Shown: one piece after another, positions 4,241-59,055 of the stretch
Numbering within the stretch: the stretch's first letter is position 1
Layout of the letters: the number at the start of each line of letters is the position of its first letter
Assembly: GCA_021771915.1 (NCBI GenBank)
Contig: JAETNY010000009.1
Span: 40,038-104,037, forward strand
Origin: Bacillota bacterium
GTDB lineage: Bacteria > Bacillota > Dehalobacteriia > UBA4068 > UBA4997
Reading direction: 5' to 3'
DNA: 64,000 nucleotides
Translations under genes and position numbers: made by a program
The notes under the pieces: generated by a model
What the model was told of the DNA's origin: nothing
The model's database searches: none
What the model saw: only the letters and a program-made list of their open reading frames with translations

Positions 4241-6125
4241 TTGGCTGTTCTGGCATAGTGCTGTTATAATGAATTTGTACGTTTTCAGGTACATTACTTT
4301 CCGCATTTTTAATTTTTAACCAGTCTTCCTCTGTGCCCTCATAATACATATCTGTTAGGTTTTTTGCCCATACAAACATGGTTTCAGGAAAAGCACATTC
4401 CACAACGCTTTTTGGTATATAGATTTCGTTTAAAGCATCAGCCATAAAAGCACTTTCGATAATAAATACGCTATCAGGAACAACGTAAATTTTGTTTGTA
4501 TTTGCATCAAAATATTGAATTAAAGTAGTTTTATCTTTGTCAAATAAGACCCCATTTTCTATACAATAATTATCATTATTGGTATTTAATAAAACTTCCG
4601 TTAATTTAGGACAACCAGACAAGGCACCAATATAAATTTTTTCAACACTTGCCGGAATTGAAACACTAACAAGATTGTTGCAACCATTAAAACAAAAATC
4701 ACCTATTTCAAGTAAACCCTCCGGTAAAATTATTTTAGTCAAATTTTCCTTGTCTGTAAATGCAAATGGAGCAATATATTTTACAGCAGTTCCCTTAATT
4801 TCCGACGGAATATCAGCAACCGTAACGCCAACATCACAACCTGTTATAGTATTGGTTGCTTTAATAAAATAAATATTGCCTCCCACAACAGGATATAATA
4901 ATTCAGGCTCAGGATAATCTGTATAATCATAAGAATAGCCAAATAAATCATCTAATGAATAACCGCTTTTAGATAATAGTGTGCTTAATTCTTTTTCACT
5001 GCCCTCATAAGTTATATCCAGATTACTGTTAGTATCCAAGGACTGTAAACCAATACTTTTTATGCCTTTGTGCATAGTCAAATATCTTAAATTGCTGCAA
5101 TTATAAAATACATGATTGCCTATTTGGGTTACAGGTACATCATCAATACTTTTAGGTATAACAACAGAAGTAACAGTATCATCACAGCCAACTATAATAC
5201 CTGTTGCTTTATCAAAATACATATATCCACCAGATACTGCAACTTTTTCATATGATGAGAAATCTTCACTCGCAAAAGAAATATTGACATTTTTCAAAAC
5301 ATCATCAACCGTGTCCATCACATTTATTTTTGCCCATTCTGCTCGAGAACCTAAATAATTAATATTTTTTAAATCAGATGCAGCAAATGCAGAACCATAA
5401 ATTCTGGTAATAGTTGCTGGCACAGTAATATCAGCCAGCTTATAACAATTTGCAAATACACTTCTTGAAAAGCCCATAAATCCTTCAGGGAAATTAATAT
5501 TTTCTAAATTTCTACAATCATAAAATGCAGATTGATTAATCATTGTACAAGAGATTGGTAATTTAACACTGGTTAATTGATTACATCTATTAAATGCATC
5601 ATGATTTATGGTTGTTACAGTGTCTGGAACTGCATATATTCCTGTTTTACCTATTGGACATCTTAACAAAATAGTTTTATCTTTATTAAATAAAACACCA
5701 TTTTCAGTAGAAAAATCAGAATTTGAGGAGGATACCATAATTTCTTTTAACTTAGGACACCCTGAAAAAACACCACTGACCTCATTTCCCCCAATGCTAT
5801 TTACAGTAGCAGGTATGCTAACCATATAGAGATTATCGCAACCAGCAAAGGCATTTTTACCAATAACTTTTACACCATTATAAACCGTAACAACTGTAAT
5901 ATCGTCACGATATGCGGCCCAAGGTTGCGTTTCTAATGTATAATCTGGCATTGCCGCATTAATTTGTCCCTCATATTTGTAAATTTCCAGATTGCCCTCA
6001 CTGTTTAACTGCCAACTTATGTCTCCGGATAGACCACTGGCAACAGTGGCCGCCCAGGCCGCAGGCGCCATACTTAGCGCCAGCAAAAATGCCAGCGCCA
6101 GCACGGCAAAAATTTTCTTTTTCAT
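3066..6125 (-). CDS. Cell-surface protein with BspA-type leucine-rich repeats, a Big_2 domain, a Listeria-Bacteroides repeat, a G/S/T/P linker and three SLH domains
   Basis: 1019 aa with a signal peptide (MKKKIFAVLALAFLLALSMAPAAWA). The LRR_5-like repeats are AT-rich (roughly 4300-5900). The C-terminal 390 aa, including the SLH motifs FADVQNNAWYSEAIAYVYNKGMMNG.., is paralogous to the 56725..59055 protein. Confidence 0.85.
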   Translation of the reverse strand: MKKKIFAVLALAFLLALSMAPAAWAATVASGLSGDISWQLNSEGNLEIYKYEGQINAAMPDYTLETQPWAAYRDDITVVTVYNGVKVIGKNAFAGCDNLYMVSIPATVNSIGGNEVSGVFSGCPKLKEIMVSSSNSDFSTENGVLFNKDKTILLRCPIGKTGIYAVPDTVTTINHDAFNRCNQLTSVKLPISCTMINQSAFYDCRNLENINFPEGFMGFSRSVFANCYKLADITVPATITRIYGSAFAASDLKNINYLGSRAEWAKINVMDTVDDVLKNVNISFASEDFSSYEKVAVSGGYMYFDKATGIIVGCDDTVTSVVIPKSIDDVPVTQIGNHVFYNCSNLRYLTMHKGIKSIGLQSLDTNSNLDITYEGSEKELSTLLSKSGYSLDDLFGYSYDYTDYPEPELLYPVVGGNIYFIKATNTITGCDVGVTVADIPSEIKGTAVKYIAPFAFTDKENLTKIILPEGLLEIGDFCFNGCNNLVSVSIPASVEKIYIGALSGCPKLTEVLLNTNNDNYCIENGVLFDKDKTTLIQYFDANTNKIYVVPDSVFIIESAFMADALNEIYIPKSVVECAFPETMFVWAKNLTDMYYEGTEEDWLKIKNAESNVPENVQIHYNSTMPEQPTNIPVTGVTLDKTALNLEVGGTATLTATVAPANATNKNIMFISSNAKVATVDKDGKVTAVGKGAAIITATAGDKKATCAVTVTADKVYTITFDTDGGTLAEGITNPDYVIKGETYKMPTATKSRYTLTAWAIGDKDSENKVKANDVYTFTADTTVYAIWQYNGGGGSHGGSSRPSGTTTTKPGTTEKPGDTNKPGTTIDNNKTVTAANVNNKFADVQNNAWYSEAIAYVYNKGMMNGTDAGKFEPDATTTRAMLVTMLFRLEGEPKAGAADFSDVASGQWFSEAIAWAAANGVVNGYKDGTFAPNDMITREQLAAVLYRFAQFKGYDVSVKGSLSNFSDSGSVSDWAQEAMQWAVGAGIINGDNGALKPAGNATRAEVAMMLMRFCENVAK

Positions 6126-6542
6126 TATATATAACCTCCTAAAAAATTTTGTATCTCAGCAGCCGAAACACCAAAGGGCATATTTAAGTGAAGGAGTTGG
6201 TGAAAATATGCCCCCAGGTATTGGCCGCCAAGACAACAAAAAATACGCGCGCAGGCATAATTCACCCACACACGCATAGAAAACCCTTTTCAGGAGGGAT
6301 TATACTTCTAAAGCGCAGCACCACACAACCGCTTACCAAAAAACGGTTGAAAAAAACATCTTGTAAAAAAGATACAGTTATACTATAATAATAACTGGTA
6401 GTGGCACTTGCACAAAAAAGCAGTTGTGTATGGCTGGAGTAGTCAGCCTGCATAGGGGCGCTGGGTATTCGCAGTACCTCAGCCCCTGCCGCTACTTTTT
6501 TTGTTGCCCCGGTTACTACAAAAACAACGGGATACACCTTTA
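6126..6542 (-). promoter_or_regulatory. Conserved long 5' leader of SLH gene A, with a terminator-like hairpin at about 6232..6277 on the minus strand
   Basis: About 90% identical to leader B in two blocks. Hairpin AUGCGUGUG-N17-CGCGCGUAU followed by a U-run, about 110 nt before the start codon. Confidence 0.55.
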
Positions 6543-37516: not shown

Positions 37517-37731
37517 AATATGACAATTTAAGCTTTGGCAGCGGTTAAAAGATTTTTTTATTTTTGTCAACTTTACAGAAAAAACCCTTGACTTTAATCA
37601 GGCATAGTGCTATACTGAAACAAGTATTCAAGATAATAGCTTATTACGCGCAATAAACCAGAAGTTGATTGATTTGGCGATATTTGTTCATTTTCTATGG
37701 GTACGAAAATTTTTGACAGGAGGTACCCAAA

Positions 37732-37947
37732 ATGAATAACGGTACAGTAAAATGGTTCAACGCAGAAAAAGGATTCGGTTTCATTGCTAATGATGAAGGC
37801 GGCGATGACGTTTTCGTACATTTCTCTGCCATTCAGACTGACGGCTATCGCACTCTGGACGAGGGACAGAAAGTTACTTTTGAAGTTGAAGCTGACCCAA
37901 AAAACCCCAGCAAACTGCGCGCAGCTAATGTTTGCAAAGTTGGCTAA
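37732..37947 (+). CDS. Cold-shock protein (CspA family)
   Basis: [35 protein letters not shown]. Confidence 0.95.
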
Positions 37948-37974
37948 ACCAGCTATTTAATTAAACAAAATACA

Positions 37975-38010
37975 AAGGAACTGTTGAAAATCTTCAACAG
38001 TTCCTTTTTT
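37975..38010 (+). terminator. Rho-independent terminator after csp
   Basis: aaggaactgttgaa-aatc-ttcaacagttcctt followed by TTTTTT. Confidence 0.8.
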
Positions 38011-54135: not shown

Positions 54136-55962
54136 TTATTCCACCGTTACCGATTTGGCCAGATTTTTCGGCTGGTCAATGCTGCAACCTTTCTGACTGG
54201 CCACATAATAGGCAAAAAGCTGCAAGGGAATTACCGTCAGCGAGGGCTGCAACCAGGGCAATGTCTTTGGCACGTAAAAAATAGCGTCGGCAATACCGGC
54301 TAAACGCTCGTCGCCCTCCACTGCCACCGCCAGCAGATAAGCGCCGCGCGCCTTAACCTCCTCCGCATTGCTCTTAATCTTCTCTATAAGACGGTCACAG
54401 GTTGCCAGCGTGCAGACCAGCGTGCCCGGCTCAATCAGAGAAATTGTGCCATGCTTTAATTCGCCGCCGGCATAGGCTTCAGAGTGAATGTAGGAAATTT
54501 CCTTCAGCTTCAAACTGCCCTCCATAGCCACGGCATAATCCAGATTGCGGCCAATGAAAAATATACTGTGCTTGTTATAAAGCTGTGAGGCCAAAAACTG
54601 GATTTTTTCCTTATCCTGTAAAGTCCGCTCCAACTGCTCCGGCAGATTTACCAGCGCCTGATAACATTCAGCCTGCTCCTGCGCAGTCAATCGCCCCAGC
54701 AAACCGGCAAATTTCAGCGCCAGCAGATAAATAACCGCCAGCTGAGTACTATATGCCTTGGTTGTCGCCACGGCAATCTCCGGCCCGGCCCAGGTATAAA
54801 GCACATCGTCCGCCTCCCGGGCAATGGTGGAACCCAGCACGTTAACAATCGCCAGCACATGCGCGCCCTGCGCCCGACCCTCTCGCATGGCCGCAATGGT
54901 ATCAGCTGTTTCACCGGATTGTGATATCACAATCATCAGTGTGTCCTCACCGATAATCGGACCGCGATAACGGAACTCTGAGGCGATATCCACCTCCACC
55001 GGAATGCGCGTGGCTTCTTCCAGAATATATTTCGCCACCGCCGCAACATGATATGAAGAACCACAGGCCACTATATAAATTTTGCGGAAATTCGCCAGCC
55101 GCTCCAAATCAATATTAAAATCGTCCAGCTTAATCTGGCCGTCCTGCAAACGAGGACTCAAAGTTTTGCGCACGCTGTCCGGTTGCTCCATAATCTCCTT
55201 GAACATAAAATGCTCATAGCCGCCCTTTTCCGCCGCAGAAACGTCCCAGTCGATATGCTGCGCCTGCTTTTCCACCAAATCCCGGTTGATATCATAAATT
55301 TCCACCTTATCCGCAGAAAGCACAACAATCTCACGGTCGTCCAGATAATAAACTTCCTGCGTATAGGCCAAAAGCGCCGCCACGTCAGAGGCTATCAGGT
55401 TTTCACCCTGCCCCAGACCAACCACCAGGGGCGCGTCCTGGCGCACGGCGTAAAAATGCTCAGGGTCGTCAAGACAGATAATCCCAAGAGAATAAGCGCC
55501 CTCCAGCGCATTTAACAGCTTAATCATCGTATCCAGCATATCACCATTATAGTAATATTCCACCAGCTGGGCAATAACCTCGGTATCCGTCTGGGAAACA
55601 AACTCATAGCCGCGCCGCTGCAAATGATTTTTCAGCTGCTGATAGTTCTCAATAATGCCGTTATGTACCACCGCAAAACGGCCGGAACTGCTTAAATGCG
55701 GGTGAGCATTAACATCACTAGGCTCGCCGTGCGTCGCCCAGCGCGTATGCCCAATCCCCATAAAACCCGGCACGCTCTGCCCCTCGTCAGTCAACTGACG
55801 CAGAACTTGCAGCTTGCCGGCCGCTTTTACCATCTCAATTTTATTATTATGCCAAACCGCAATGCCAGCGGAGTCATAACCACGGTATTCCAAGGTGGCC
55901 AAACCTTTCAGCAACACCGGCGCCGCCGCCTTGCCGCCTACGTACCCAACTATGCCACACAT
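54136..55962 (-). CDS. glmS: Glutamine--fructose-6-phosphate aminotransferase
   Basis: MCGIVGYVG.. Ntn-amidotransferase N-terminus and two SIS domains. 608 aa. Confidence 0.97.
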   Translation of the reverse strand: MCGIVGYVGGKAAAPVLLKGLATLEYRGYDSAGIAVWHNNKIEMVKAAGKLQVLRQLTDEGQSVPGFMGIGHTRWATHGEPSDVNAHPHLSSSGRFAVVHNGIIENYQQLKNHLQRRGYEFVSQTDTEVIAQLVEYYYNGDMLDTMIKLLNALEGAYSLGIICLDDPEHFYAVRQDAPLVVGLGQGENLIASDVAALLAYTQEVYYLDDREIVVLSADKVEIYDINRDLVEKQAQHIDWDVSAAEKGGYEHFMFKEIMEQPDSVRKTLSPRLQDGQIKLDDFNIDLERLANFRKIYIVACGSSYHVAAVAKYILEEATRIPVEVDIASEFRYRGPIIGEDTLMIVISQSGETADTIAAMREGRAQGAHVLAIVNVLGSTIAREADDVLYTWAGPEIAVATTKAYSTQLAVIYLLALKFAGLLGRLTAQEQAECYQALVNLPEQLERTLQDKEKIQFLASQLYNKHSIFFIGRNLDYAVAMEGSLKLKEISYIHSEAYAGGELKHGTISLIEPGTLVCTLATCDRLIEKIKSNAEEVKARGAYLLAVAVEGDERLAGIADAIFYVPKTLPWLQPSLTVIPLQLFAYYVASQKGCSIDQPKNLAKSVTVE

Positions 55963-56023
55963 AAAAAAATTCCTCCTTATTAAACGCCGAAAAATTTACC
56001 TGACGCTCAAAACTTTGCCATAG

Positions 56024-56052
56024 ATTATATCATATAACCAGCGTTTTTGCAA
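56024..56052 (-). promoter_or_regulatory. glmS promoter (TTGCAA-17-TATAAT on the minus strand) with a short 5' UTR of about 55 nt
   Basis: Read directly from the sequence. Confidence 0.5.
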
Positions 56053-56170
56053 GCATTTTCCCAGGCGTAGCAAACCGCCATTGACGAAACATTGACAAAA
56101 TACGGCAAAAAAATAGCAACCGCCGCTAGCAGCAATAGTGACGGTTGAAAAATTTTTTAAAACTATTGTG

Positions 56171-56260
56171 GCTAACCGCTTATCAGTGGTGCCTTTATAT
56201 TTATTATTATAGTATTACATATTCAATTTATCAAACGCGCGTTGGAATTTTCTGCCTTTT
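56171..56260 (+). repeat. About 85-nt conserved element E, copy B
   Basis: Aligns with 6877..6965 in the same orientation. Confidence 0.5.
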
Positions 56261-56333
56261 TGGCTTTATGCAAAAAATTTCCAGAAGCATCTTGCCCTCC
56301 CAAAATAAAAAATGCAATTTTTTGAAAATAGGG

Positions 56334-56362
56334 CTTGACTATAAGAGTTGTTAGCGGTACAA
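56334..56362 (+). promoter_or_regulatory. Sigma-A promoter of SLH gene B (TTGACT-17-TACAAT)
   Basis: Read directly. Positioned 20 nt upstream of the conserved leader block. Confidence 0.55.
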
Positions 56363-56724
56363 TAAAAATACAAGGCGACAAAAAAAGTTGCGGCAGGGAC
56401 TGTGGGTACGCCAATACCCCAGACCCCCTATGCAGGCTGCTCTACCCAGCCATACACAACTGCTTTTTATGTGTCGCAGCGCCGCTACATTTAGTATAAT
56501 ACAAGTCAGCCCGTTCTGCAAGGGTTAAGTTGTTGGTTTTTCAGTTGAGCTGCTGCACTTTAGAAGATTATTCCTCCTGAAAAGGGGTTTCTATGCGTGT
56601 ATGGGTGAATTATGCCTGTACGCGCATTTTTTGTTGTTTTGACGGCCTTGCACGATGGGGCGGCTTGCCGGGGCTGCTCCCGGTGTTGGGCTGTTAAGAC
56701 CACACTTTTAGGAGGTTATTTATA
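56363..56724 (+). promoter_or_regulatory. Conserved long 5' leader of SLH gene B, with a terminator-like hairpin at 56593..56640
   Basis: AUGCGUGUA-N17-UACGCGCAU followed by UUUUUUGUUGUUUU. Two blocks are about 90% identical to leader A. Confidence 0.55.
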
Positions 56725-59055
56725 ATGAAAAAGAAATTTTTTGCTGTGCTAATGCTGGCATTTGTGCTGGCATTGAACACTACGCCCACGGCTTGTGCGG
56801 CGGATAGAACTGCGGCGCAGGCTATTGCGGACTGTGTTGCGGCATTTAACGCTGATGCGAACCACGGCACCGGTGAACTGCAAGCAGAGGTTAACGGTGA
56901 TACTGTAACCATTACCGGCACGGTTACGGACGCTGAAAAACCTTTGGTTTTGAAGTTGGAAGGTGGCCTTAATGCCAGCACCGGTAATGCTACAGTGAAC
57001 TGGCAGGCCGATTTAACCGGTAGTGTTTACAATTATTTGGTTTATGTGTCCGGTTACGATAACCCAAAGCAGGTTATTACCTTTAACGCCACTAAAGGGC
57101 ATATTACCAATCAAAACTCCTCGGGCTGTGCTTTGAAGCCTTATATGGCAGAAATTAATGTCAGCGGCGCAGTAATTTCCGGTTACTATGGTATTGACGC
57201 GTCCATTTATCAAGATAGCGCTTATAGTATCAACATCACCAATAGCGGTTTAGTTGCTGGCACAGAATTAGGTGTGGTAGGCTATATTGATACTTTGAAA
57301 AACGGCGGCGTTGTTTATGGCGGCAAGTGGCCGGCAGCTTCCAGCCCAAACGCTTCTACGGAATTAAATCCATTTGGTATTGCATTGCCCAGTTTTGTGA
57401 TTTATGGCAAACTGCCCGGTGAGGCGACTCTTACGGCAGGCAGCACCAATGGTCTTAAATGTTATCCTGCTAATGCCACGGGCAACGCTGAATGGGCGGT
57501 TGAAGATGGCAAAAGCGGTATTTATGTCAGCGGCAGCGGTTTTGTGGAACTGCCCGGTTTAACGGTTACCGAGCCCACCGGCGTGCTTGGTTTGAACAAG
57601 AGCAAGGTTACCTTGGCTGTTGGGGAGACTTTTCAGGTAGAGCCTTATAAGGTTAACCCGGCTGACGCTGAAGTGAAATGGATGTTTGGCAAATTGACAA
57701 GCAGCGGTGGATACACTTATTATGAGGTTATTGAAACTGATATTGCCACCGTTGACGCTAATGGTCTGGTTACTGCGCAAAAAGAAGGTACGGTAACACT
57801 GTTGGGCAGAGCGGCGAAACCAGACGGCACATGGTATAATCAGCAAGGCATTTGTCAAATTACTGTTGTTAAGGCTGCTGATAAACCAACTGTTGCCGTT
57901 ACCGGCGTTCAATTAAACCAAACAGCTCTGAATTTGGAAATTAACGGCACTGCCACACTGATTGCCACAGTTGCACCGGAAAATGCCACCAATAAATCCG
58001 TCCGCTGGAGCAGTAACAATACCGCGGTGGCAACTGTGGACGCTAACGGTAATCTCAAGGCTGTGGCCCCTGGCAAGGCCACAATCACCGCGACGGCTGA
58101 CGGCGTGAAAGCTGAATGTCGGGTAACTGTTACCGCTGATACGGTTTACACCATTACCTTTGACACGGACGGCGGCACTCTGGCCGCTGGTATTACCAAT
58201 CCGGATTACGTGGTTAAAGGTGCGGAATACAAAATGCCCACCGCTAACAAGAGCCGCTACAAACTGACCGCCTGGGCAATCGGCAGCAAAGACAGCGCGA
58301 ACCAAGTTAAGGCGAACGATGTTTACACTTTCACTGAGGACACCACGGTTTATGCCATTTGGCAGTATAACGGCGGCGGTGGAGGCGGCAGCCACAGACC
58401 AAGCGGCAGCGGTACGACCACGCCGACCACGCCAACCAAACCGACCAATCCGGAAAAGCCGGGTAACAGTGGCAACACTGGCAGCAGCACGGTAACGGCG
58501 GCGAATATTAAAAATGTGTTTGCGGACGTACAGAATAACGCCTGGTACTCCGAAGCGATTGCTTATGTTTACAATAAGGGCATGATGAACGGTACGGACG
58601 CCGGCAAGTTTGAGCCGAACGCGACGACCACCCGGGCCATGTTGGTAACCATGCTGCACCGTCTGGAAAATGAACCGGCAGCAGCAGCGGCCAAATTCAG
58701 CGACGTAGCTTCCGGCCAGTGGTTCAGCAAAGCTGTGGCCTGGGCGGCGGCTAATGGAGTGGTAAACGGCTATGAGAATGGCACGTTTGCACCAAATGCA
58801 GCAATTACACGTGAACAGCTTGCTGCGATATTGTATCGTTTTGCCCAGTTTAAGGGCTATGACGTGAGCGTTAAAGGCAATTTGAGCAGCTTTAGCGATA
58901 ACGCGCAGGTTTCCGACTGGGCGAAGGAGGCTATGCAGTGGGCGGTTGGCGCTGGTATTATCGATGGGGATAACAATGCCTTGAAGCCGACCGGCAATGC
59001 CACCAGAGCCGAGGTTGCGATAATGTTAATGCGTTATATTGAAAATGTTAAATAA
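56725..59055 (+). CDS. SLH-domain cell-surface protein, paralog of 3066..6125, with a different N-terminal passenger region
   Basis: 776 aa with a signal peptide (MKKKFFAVLMLAFVLALNTTPTACA). It has a Big_2 domain and the same Listeria-Bacteroides-repeat / linker / three-SLH module as copy A. Confidence 0.85.
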   Translation: MKKKFFAVLMLAFVLALNTTPTACAADRTAAQAIADCVAAFNADANHGTGELQAEVNGDTVTITGTVTDAEKPLVLKLEGGLNASTGNATVNWQADLTGSVYNYLVYVSGYDNPKQVITFNATKGHITNQNSSGCALKPYMAEINVSGAVISGYYGIDASIYQDSAYSINITNSGLVAGTELGVVGYIDTLKNGGVVYGGKWPAASSPNASTELNPFGIALPSFVIYGKLPGEATLTAGSTNGLKCYPANATGNAEWAVEDGKSGIYVSGSGFVELPGLTVTEPTGVLGLNKSKVTLAVGETFQVEPYKVNPADAEVKWMFGKLTSSGGYTYYEVIETDIATVDANGLVTAQKEGTVTLLGRAAKPDGTWYNQQGICQITVVKAADKPTVAVTGVQLNQTALNLEINGTATLIATVAPENATNKSVRWSSNNTAVATVDANGNLKAVAPGKATITATADGVKAECRVTVTADTVYTITFDTDGGTLAAGITNPDYVVKGAEYKMPTANKSRYKLTAWAIGSKDSANQVKANDVYTFTEDTTVYAIWQYNGGGGGGSHRPSGSGTTTPTTPTKPTNPEKPGNSGNTGSSTVTAANIKNVFADVQNNAWYSEAIAYVYNKGMMNGTDAGKFEPNATTTRAMLVTMLHRLENEPAAAAAKFSDVASGQWFSKAVAWAAANGVVNGYENGTFAPNAAITREQLAAILYRFAQFKGYDVSVKGNLSSFSDNAQVSDWAKEAMQWAVGAGIIDGDNNALKPTGNATRAEVAIMLMRYIENVK
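57900..59055. repeat. Shared C-terminal SLH module, copy B
   Basis: See 3066..4240. Confidence 0.8.

Follow-up and report, generated by a model that had tools for sequence, protein, structure and literature searches.

Why should each of two surface-protein genes on one bacterial contig be preceded by several hundred untranslated nucleotides that contain what looks like a transcription terminator? The question was raised by a 64,000-nt stretch of DNA from a Bacillota bacterium (GCA_021771915.1, contig JAETNY010000009.1, positions 40,038-104,037), hereafter the window, in which leader A lies upstream of an SLH/BspA-LRR gene starting at 6125 on the minus strand and leader B upstream of an SLH gene starting at 56725 on the plus strand. 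A sequence-only reading had taken these leaders for a riboswitch or an attenuator of unknown class, and had been tempted by cyclic di-GMP (c-di-GMP) as the ligand. In an analysis that was computational throughout, we found that the observation itself is real and that the attenuator part of this proposal stands, while the riboswitch part does not. The explanation that best accounts for the leaders is transcription attenuation driven by a countertranscript, in a chromosomal and multi-copy form, and we hold this view with moderate confidence.

Conservation, fold and terminator of the leaders

Alignment of the two upstream regions showed that leaders A and B are homologous from the promoter to the signal-peptide codons. 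Each gene has its own sigma-A promoter, as had been claimed: TTGACT-17-TACAAT for leader B (56335-56363, plus strand, one nucleotide away from where it had been placed), which has a predicted transcription start site (TSS) at ~56370 and is aligned and conserved in every leader covering the region, and TTGATA-17-TATAAT for leader A (6570-6542, minus strand; 11/12 matches). The long untranslated leaders were likewise borne out, the distance from the predicted TSS to the ATG being ~355 nt in B and ~420 nt in A. Identity between the two is very uneven: 76% in block 1, 47% in the middle, 86% in block 2, 26% in the hairpin preceding the Shine-Dalgarno (SD) sequence and 83% from the SD to the ATG, and the differences in block 1 cluster in two stem-loops. 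The only homologous part of the two coding sequences has 76% nucleotide identity; the figure of about 90% given earlier for the blocks was therefore too high for both of them, and the statement that they exceed the coding regions holds for block 2. A 46-nt pattern taken from block 2 matched only the two leaders within the window, and two matches were obtained in 0/100 shuffles.

Homologues were collected by one metagenome scan and one genome scan with the block patterns, and then from contigs encoding relatives of the cargo proteins. The pattern scans gave eight loci, all with the promoter, both blocks and the SD; 25 copies were recovered altogether, and the 15 distinct full-length leaders, here referred to by numbers such as L007, were analysed in alignment A3. 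The hosts are uncultured Bacillota represented by metagenome-assembled genomes (MAGs), one of them labelled Peptococcaceae, and the mouse-gut MAG MGBC125362 contains at least three leader copies. The cargo genes encode SLH proteins with Big_2, Flg_new and LRR_5, a Cu_amine_oxidN1 wall-binding protein, an LRR protein and a DUF4190 membrane protein of ~83 aa, and the upstream neighbours (nadE, glmS, Uma2) vary as well. Selection on the leader RNA, which had been argued from the two window copies, was thus borne out more strongly, the same leader standing before unrelated coding sequences in other genomes.

RNAalifold applied to alignment A3 gave a sense fold comprising P2 and P3 in block 1, P4 enclosing the variable middle, the terminator, P5, and a helix between the CCUCCUGAAA box and UUUUAGGAGG, which carries the SD. 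Its 74 pairs are formed in 96.5% of cells, compared with 35-55% when the partners are slid, and it includes 13 compensatory pairs, against 7.0 ± 1.5 in shuffles, of which 0/500 reached 13. The leader fold therefore covaries in the 15 leaders, and it was on covariation across further homologues that the sequence-only reading had staked its proposal. P2 and P3 covary, with invariant junction nucleotides; the P4 helices are 92-98% paired and contain many G.U pairs that exist on the sense strand only; and P5 has a lower stem that is 99.4% paired and an upper stem with five compensatory pairs. In leader B, block 1 occupies 56372-56471 (plus strand), with an A-run at 56380-56386, P2 at 56390-56433, P3 at 56435-51 and a CCAUACAC box at 56450-56457; P4, a long stem-loop defined by RNAalifold and pair counts, follows between blocks 1 and 2 at 56471-56558. 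The corresponding block 1 of leader A lies at 6411-6510 on the minus strand (A-run 6502-6496, P2 6492-6450, P3 6448-6432, CCAUACAC 6433-6426). Block 1 scored 103.5 bits in B and 112.6 bits in A against covariance model R1.

The terminator is present in 15/15 leaders as a 14-15-bp hairpin followed by UUUUUUGUUGU. It lies at 56593-56640 in B (plus strand; hairpin 56593-56627, 5' arm GUGUAUGG at 56597-56604, then the U-tract) and at 6230-6277 in A (minus strand; hairpin 6277-6243, 5' arm GUGUGUGG at 6273-6266, then the U-tract). A hairpin with a U-run ahead of the start codon had thus been recognized correctly, although its stem is 14-15 bp long rather than 9 and it stands ~100 nt before the start; the A-U/G-C change at its terminal pair was also confirmed as compensatory, the pair being GC in nine leaders, AU in four and GU in two. 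Fourteen terminator pairs are 100% paired, with one compensatory pair and seven G.U positions, and because of these G.U positions the terminator exists on the sense strand only: across the 15 leaders it folds with -16 to -20 kcal/mol, compared with -2.6 to -8 kcal/mol on the other strand (B, -18.4 vs -8.2; A, -17.9 vs -2.6 kcal/mol).

Downstream of the terminator, the SD is itself paired. The anti-SD box CCUCCUGAAAA (56573-56583, plus strand, in B, with its partner UUUUAGGAGG at 56706-56715; 6287-6297, minus strand, in A) forms a helix of 10 pairs with the SD region, which is 99.3% paired and shows a change from U.G to C-G in L025 and L028. The segment from 56636 to 56724 in B (plus strand) comprises the variable hairpin P5, the SD AGGAGG (56710-56715) and the spacer to the ATG at 56725; in A, the SD AGGAGG is at 6140-6135 and the ATG at 6125-6123. 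No promoter-like sequence was found between the terminator and the SD, either by inspection of leader B or, on the sense strand of either leader, by the scan tool, and because of this, expression of the surface-protein genes appears, as judged from sequence, to require read-through of the terminator. A small open reading frame (ORF) in the leader had been named as an observation that would speak against regulation by the RNA, and a leader peptide starting from the ATG at the terminator base was rejected: the codon reads ATA in L007 and is missing from L008, L025 and L028, and the sequence diverges after 18 codons.

Could the conservation merely be left over from a recent duplication of, or gene conversion between, the upstream regions of paralogues, with no function at all? 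Leader types and cargo are shuffled, so recombination between copies does occur. The substitutions are, however, structured, consisting of compensatory pairs, transitions opposite wobble-capable partners and loop changes with 232 positions fixed; indel-rich interiors lie between invariant helices; and the leader is kept before unrelated genes in at least seven lineages. We regard an origin of this kind as exceedingly improbable.

Three further features of the sense leader may be mentioned here. The P1 helix proposed by RNAalifold (GGGGCA/UGCUUU) was rejected, as it is broken in L025 and L028; a P1 formed by the A-run and a U-run fits better, yet is mismatched in B-type leaders. A second sense promoter at an internal TATAAT box was rejected for want of a -35 at 17 nt. 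Finally, the A-type leaders (window 6535-6511 on the minus strand, L004, L005, L006, L017, L019 and L022) carry a 23-nt insertion directly past the sense TSS, which supplies a GGGGCAAC segment with a local partner GUUGUUUU, paired with four G.U pairs, and so creates a sense-specific 5'-terminal hairpin that is absent in B-type leaders.

The opposite strand of block 1

Inside the variable interior of P4 are two conserved islands at a fixed distance, which on the opposite strand read TTG(T/C)A(A/G)-N17-TATA(A/C)T. This signature is found in 15/15 leaders, with a spacer that is always 17 nt long and occurs as 10 different sequences, and it is convergent with the sense promoter. The information content is 1.67 bits for the -35, 1.20 for the spacer, 1.83 for the -10 and 0.77 upstream, the hexamers being the most conserved columns of an otherwise variable region. 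In leader A the candidate antisense promoter, TTGTAA-17-TATAAT at 6361-6389 (plus strand), was called by the promoter scan with 10/12 matches, and in leader B it lies at 56493-56521 on the minus strand (-35 TTGCAG at 56521-56516, 17-nt spacer, -10 TATACT at 56498-56493). A main role as the promoter of a divergent upstream gene was rejected: the upstream genes differ, and in L025 and L028 the upstream gene is co-directional with the cargo.

With the antisense TSS set at 7 nt past the -10, and the 3' end at a U7 run that is the complement of the sense A-run, the predicted antisense transcript would be ~105-110 nt long and directed into block 1. The same fold is predicted for it in 15/15 leaders, namely a four-way junction made up of a closing stem that joins the extreme 5' end to the stretch immediately preceding U7, a hairpin whose loop is A-rich, a P3' with a 7-bp extension, and P2'. 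RNAalifold recovered this junction with 96.9% paired and five compensatory pairs, which 0/500 shuffles reached. The predicted RNA is ~107 nt in both window copies, at 56380-56486 (minus strand) for B, where the closing stem is followed by U7 and the P2' loop is UUGGCG, and at 6396-6502 (plus strand) for A, where the P2' loop is UUCGCAG, a YUNR loop; both ends of each RNA are predictions.

Two helices of this fold are peculiar to the antisense strand. The closing stem is paired in 90/90 cells on that strand, compared with 71/90 for the same columns on the sense strand, and the P3' extension in 104/104 cells compared with 63/104, three invariant G.U pairs being C.A mismatches on the sense strand. 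The identical segment of 107-108 nt folds with -39 to -49 kcal/mol (z -2.5 to -3.8) as antisense RNA and with -29 to -36.5 kcal/mol (z -0.8 to -2.5) as sense RNA, so that block 1 folds better by 10-13 kcal/mol as the former; the minimum free energies are -48.8 (z -3.5) vs -35.3 kcal/mol (z -1.8) in B and -48.6 (z -3.8) vs -36.5 kcal/mol (z -2.4) in A. On the antisense strand there is no conserved frame, no conserved ORF and no SD, and a small antisense ORF or a type I toxin was therefore rejected. Because of the convergent promoter signature, the antisense-only helices, the strand asymmetry and the lack of an ORF, block 1 is, within these fold models, best read as the putative gene of a cis-antisense small RNA and, at the same time, as its target.

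Variation within block 1 is concentrated in the loops of P2 and P3. Among A-type leaders, six of the seven P2-loop positions and five of the seven P3-loop positions vary, against two of the other ~88 columns of block 1, and L025 and L028 differ at four of seven P3-loop positions but at 0/232 structured positions elsewhere and 0/70 in the interior of P5. A more drastic change affects the 15-nt tip of P2, which is the exact reverse complement between otherwise near-identical leaders in two cases, leader A of the window (6478-6464, minus strand) vs L019 and L001 vs L005 (the tip pairs being GGTACTGCGAATACC vs GGTATTCGCAGTACC and GGTACTGGTAATACC vs GGTATTACCAGTACC); inversion of the hairpin tip has therefore occurred on at least two occasions. 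Such an inversion swaps the loops between the two RNAs and keeps their complementarity. YUNR is found at P2 loop position 1 on exactly one strand in 14/15 leaders, and YUNR loops are known sites of initial contact in cis-antisense pairs (PMC2943612); UUGGCG, present in four leaders, is the loop common to the natural regulators of the loop-loop type that PMC3753616 employed. In the multi-copy Sib/ibs family, variable recognition domains restrict recognition to the cognate partner (PMC2943612), and the hypervariable loops of the leaders, to judge from their pattern of change, behave as candidate kissing recognition elements.

These results bear directly on the proposal of a metabolite or second-messenger riboswitch, according to which the sense three-way junction of block 1 would be an aptamer whose ligand sequesters CCAUACAC and so allows the terminator to form. 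The covariation of P2 and P3 around invariant junction nucleotides would suit an aptamer, the complementarity of the J3/1 segment to the terminator arm is typical riboswitch logic, and an envelope-gene regulon is plausible for a signalling ligand. However, an Rfam 15 cmscan, at the gathering threshold for the whole window and at E<=10 for both strands of both leaders, gave in the leaders only chance matches of 11.8-17.1 bits to unrelated families, and c-di-GMP and other known riboswitch classes were rejected on this ground, no relevant model, GEMM-I/II included, reaching E<10 on either strand. On the sense strand, P1 is weak, and broken in L025 and L028, whereas block 1 folds better as antisense RNA and with helices that only the antisense strand can form; the inversion of the P2 tip between near-identical copies would not be tolerated by a ligand pocket if that loop mattered; and an aptamer model would explain neither the hypervariability of the loops nor the conserved convergent promoter nor so narrow a taxonomic range. 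A riboswitch is thus very unlikely.

A separate observation concerns the 5' end of block 1. Over 11 bp, the 5' segment GGGGCAACAAA of the sense leader is able to pair with the sense terminator's tail; these positions are 100% paired and include a double change from C-G to U-A in L025 and L028 (A3 columns 1-11 with 289-299; 56372-56382 with ~56630-56640 and 6510-6500 with ~6240-6230 in the window), and this helix crosses the anti-SD:SD helix. The tail of the predicted antisense RNA and that of the sense terminator have nearly the same sequence and have changed together. The helix might join the ends of the terminated transcript, or might reflect a tail sequence common to the sense and antisense units.

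Alternative pairing and the proposed switch

A scan for conserved helices showed that the invariant CCAUACAC can pair with the terminator 5' arm, GUGU(A/G)UGG, and that the 3' arm has a possible partner in UGCAGG, in a helix nested around the first. Both of these antiterminator helices are paired in 100% of cells in 15/15 leaders, so that the alternative terminator/antiterminator pairing for which the sequence-only reading had advised looking is present, conserved and able in principle to prevent termination. CCAUACAC is single-stranded in the sense fold because its pairing on the antisense strand relies on G.U, and the antisense segment UUGUGUAUGGCUG and the terminator arm GCGUGUAUGGGUG are near-copies, which therefore compete for the same sense box.

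When the folding of the nascent transcript was modelled up to the terminator loop, the 5' arm paired with CCAUACAC at a probability of at least 0.77 in 11/15 leaders. With the 3' arm present, the terminator was favoured, with probabilities of 0.83-0.99 and an equilibrium margin of 1-12 kcal/mol, falling as low as 1-4 kcal/mol in A-type leaders. In these models, the folding pattern is that of a kinetic switch, with read-through as the default and a terminator that would be released by occupancy of block 1. Conditional read-through controlled by a ligand, a protein or a small RNA had been proposed from the two window copies; the conserved terminator and the conserved alternative pairing are in keeping with the conditional part, and among the three controllers the evidence favours RNA.

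Countertranscript-driven attenuation would operate as follows. Each leader would be a self-contained module of two convergent transcription units, and its sense transcript would have two mutually exclusive folds. In the read-through fold, the invariant CCAUACAC, flanked by UGCAGG, would pair with the terminator arms and RNA polymerase would enter the surface-protein gene; in the terminating fold, block 1 would be occupied and the 14-bp terminator hairpin would form. The internal promoter on the opposite strand would, if it fires, produce a non-coding RNA of ~105 nt, exactly complementary to block 1 and ending at its own stem and U7, which would touch the nascent leader through complementary hairpin loops, cover block 1, remove the partner of the antiterminator and so bring about termination. 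Convergent transcription may add promoter interference, and in any full-length RNA the SD would be paired with the CCUCCU box.

Several observations weigh against this account. In four of the 15 leaders, CCAUACAC is not favoured in the nascent fold; in three of them (L007, L025 and L028) the 5' arm prefers the 5' strand of P4, which is itself within the antisense target, and only L008 differs. The antiterminator helices consist almost entirely of invariant columns, with one compensatory pair among 25, so that covariation cannot confirm them, and an 8-bp complement with G.U allowed is not rare by chance in a 450-nt RNA, although for the perfect Watson-Crick version in leader B we estimate ~0.03 expected matches to the terminator arm. 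In simulation, opening of the SD was seemingly coupled to the antiterminator state, but the two helices cross and the folding model forbids pseudoknots, by which this coupling is partly forced, and we have discounted it. The antisense promoter of leader B is weak (-35 TTGCAG), with 8/12 matches, and fell below the scan cut-off; what would serve the antisense RNA as a terminator is the stem that closes its four-way junction, 0-3 nt ahead of U7, an arrangement that is uncommon among intrinsic terminators; and the anti-SD box is deleted in L007. Lastly, only about seven lineages, all from one narrow clade, are represented among the 15 leaders, and the shuffle statistics therefore overstate their independence.

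The main rival is an attenuator controlled by a protein or other factor, which would stabilize block 1 and thereby cause termination, the antisense RNA having no role and the antisense promoter being inactive or acting by interference only. The order of elements in the sense strand matches that of the pLS20 attenuator, with an upstream stem-loop (P3), the long imperfect P4 and then the terminator (PMC13401043), and here too the 5' arm of the terminator finds its complement in the 3' strand upstream; moreover, the invariant single-stranded boxes of block 1 could be a protein site, and the results of nascent folding are independent of any antisense RNA. What a factor would leave unexplained are the antisense-only helices, the asymmetry of 10-13 kcal/mol, the -35/N17/-10 signature and the tolerance of P2-tip inversion. 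The complementary segments are, in addition, not contiguous with P4, internal loops of 14 and 42 nt lying between them, and no candidate RNA-binding protein gene accompanies the module on the contigs examined. We consider control by such a factor unlikely.

The leader might, alternatively, serve mRNA stability or high expression, with the terminator as a constitutive partial attenuator and the effect of any antisense RNA confined to promoter interference or to cleavage by RNase III. S-layer genes are known to have long structured leaders, the A-type leaders have their sense-specific 5'-terminal hairpin, and the 5' segment can pair with the terminator tail, all of which would fit. A leader of this kind has, however, no need of a 14-bp terminator and U-tract in 15/15 copies, of an invariant box complementary to the terminator arm or of a convergent promoter, and conservation of the leader is far above what protection of a 5' end needs, which makes this explanation distinctly unlikely.

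If countertranscript-driven attenuation is correct, each surface-protein paralogue might have a private RNA toggle, bistable between ON and OFF without DNA rearrangement and kept orthogonal to the others by its loops, which would amount to RNA-based phase variation; this extension is possible but doubtful. A gut commensal could, were it true, vary its surface-protein repertoire cell by cell, and the modules together would provide a natural collection of antisense transcription attenuators orthogonal to one another, with possible new parts for RNA circuits in synthetic biology. The change of four of seven loop positions while 232 others are fixed would likewise be a natural experiment in the orthogonality of paralogous sense/antisense pairs. 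For annotation, the leaders suggest that a conserved 'riboswitch-like' leader block can be the trace left by a gene for an antisense RNA, betrayed by G.U strand asymmetry and by a promoter signature with fixed spacing.

Distribution and comparison with known systems

The leader and its cargo are separable. The DUF4190 gene has an A-type leader in some genomes (L004, L005) and a B-type leader in others (L001, L002, L009, L010), and the nearly identical leaders of L025 and L028 precede different cargo (687 aa vs 725 aa with LRR_5), which implies that recombination has taken place where leader and cargo join; the signal-peptide codons (MKKKxFAVL...AWA) move together with the leader. DUF4190 homologues at ~70% identity have short upstream regions from which the leader is absent. 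The distant SLH homologues (36-41% identity) gave no covariance-model match, only L030 having enough upstream DNA (~300 nt) to judge, and there the upstream region differs from the leader. No blastn match to the module was obtained in 72,556 plasmids, in phage collections or in viral contigs, and an origin in a mobile element was rejected. Given this distribution of homologues, the varied cargo and the lack of plasmid, phage or viral matches, the module is specific to one narrow clade, chromosomal and modular.

Some features of the cargo genes and of the window lie outside the module. The distant SLH/Big_2 gene of L030, which lacks the leader, has four tandem copies of AAAGACCTCTGAGGCGG ~90-150 nt before its start codon (150-215), and these may constitute a regulatory element of another kind. 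Downstream of the DUF4190 gene comes lgt, encoding prolipoprotein diacylglyceryl transferase, in L009 (10001-11229), L010 and L013-L015, a synteny that is kept both in the leader-bearing clade and in distant Bacillota without the leader. Elsewhere in the window, the Rfam search gave a match at the gathering level, unexpected for a Bacillota genome, to the enterobacterial cspA thermoregulator RF01766 at 37613-38007 (plus strand; 85.6 bits, gathering threshold 78), which covers a 71-aa cold-shock protein gene (37732-37947) and ~120 nt upstream of it; the match probably reflects, for the most part, conservation of the coding sequence and not a homologous thermosensor. Many Bacillota carry a glmS ribozyme upstream of glmS; the glmS gene divergent from leader B (54136-55962, minus strand) has none upstream of it by Rfam (55963-56334).

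Natural transcription attenuators governed by antisense RNA have been noted for their 'apparent dearth' (PMC3753616). Such attenuators are few and almost all plasmid-borne, and a chromosomal multi-copy family in uncultured gut Bacillota would extend the mechanism to host-facing surface proteins. Because there is no Rfam match on either strand and no blastn match among plasmids, phages or viral contigs, the module is, as far as sequence comparison goes, to be regarded as an analogue and not a homologue of the plasmid attenuators.

The c-di-GMP-I and c-di-GMP-II riboswitches (RF01051, RF01786) resemble the module in placing a 5' leader and a terminator before surface-protein genes in Clostridia-like bacteria, but neither gave a score at E<10 on either strand, and a gene for an antisense RNA is the better explanation of the candidate aptamer. 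Closer in organization are Sib/ibs and other multi-copy chromosomal cis-antisense families, which also have several similar sense/antisense pairs per genome, hypervariable recognition and a YUNR contact (PMC2943612). These, however, are type I toxin-antitoxin systems acting on the translation or stability of a small toxin mRNA, whereas the module concerns the leaders of large envelope genes and its proposed output is transcription termination.

The plasmid systems pT181 (RNAI/II-repC), pIP501 (RNAIII-repR) and pAMbeta1 share more of the design. In these too, a small cis-antisense RNA is directed against the 5' part of a leader, an intrinsic terminator precedes the ribosome-binding site of the regulated gene, a leader segment either pairs with a terminator arm or is occupied by the antisense RNA, and recognition is by hairpin loops, with specificity coming from the loop and upper stem (PMC3753616, PMC2879508). 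The module differs in being chromosomal and multi-copy and in preceding cell-envelope genes rather than a replication initiator, and also in the predicted four-way junction of its antisense RNA, in the P4 spacer of ~150 nt between target and terminator and in the extra helix that sequesters the SD.

Two systems supply experimental precedents, by analogy, for the mechanism proposed here. In prgQ/Anti-Q of the Enterococcus faecalis plasmid pCF10, convergent promoters lie in the leader and the antisense RNA is ~100 nt long (PMC3181467); Anti-Q enhances factor-independent termination in the 5' leader, with transcriptional interference as a second layer (PMC3181467), and a bistable ON/OFF switch has been shown to arise from the convergent promoters and the antisense-triggered terminator. 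The overlap in the module is ~110-120 nt, compared with 223 nt in pCF10; there is no prgX-like repressor gene downstream of the antisense promoter, the antisense unit apparently being a small RNA only; and the module has no peptide-coding leader and is not plasmid-borne. In icsA/RnaG of Shigella flexneri, an antisense RNA convergent with the promoter of a surface-protein gene pairs with ~120 nt of the leader (PMC2879508), and RnaG provokes an intrinsic terminator on the nascent icsA mRNA, promoter interference taking place too (PMC2879508). RnaG, by contrast, is 450 nt long and single-copy, on a virulence plasmid of a Gram-negative host, and its terminator is inside the overlap, whereas that of the module lies ~130 nt beyond it.

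On the sense strand, the order of elements also resembles that of the zipper-type attenuator cATT of the pLS20 family of conjugative plasmids, in whose long leader an upstream stem-loop that is weak is followed by a long, imperfect one and then by a terminator, as P3 is by P4 and the terminator in the module. There also, the 5' stem of the terminator has its complement in the 3' strand upstream, and the antiterminator is the kinetic default (PMC13401043). The complementary flanks of the module, however, do not extend P4 contiguously (the first antiterminator helix, at A3 columns 82-89/255-262, lies outside P4 at 104-118/201-212, with 14 + 42 columns unpaired), and, in place of a conAn1-type conjugation operon, the cargo is an SLH, LRR or DUF4190 gene on a chromosomal contig, with no sequence similarity between the two systems. 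In the 2026 description of the pLS20 attenuator the trigger was not established, its authors raising a counter-transcript as a possibility (PMC13401043), whereas in the module a candidate trigger, the putative antisense RNA, is visible in the sequence itself. The module thus offers a concrete candidate for the type of trigger discussed for zipper-type attenuators.

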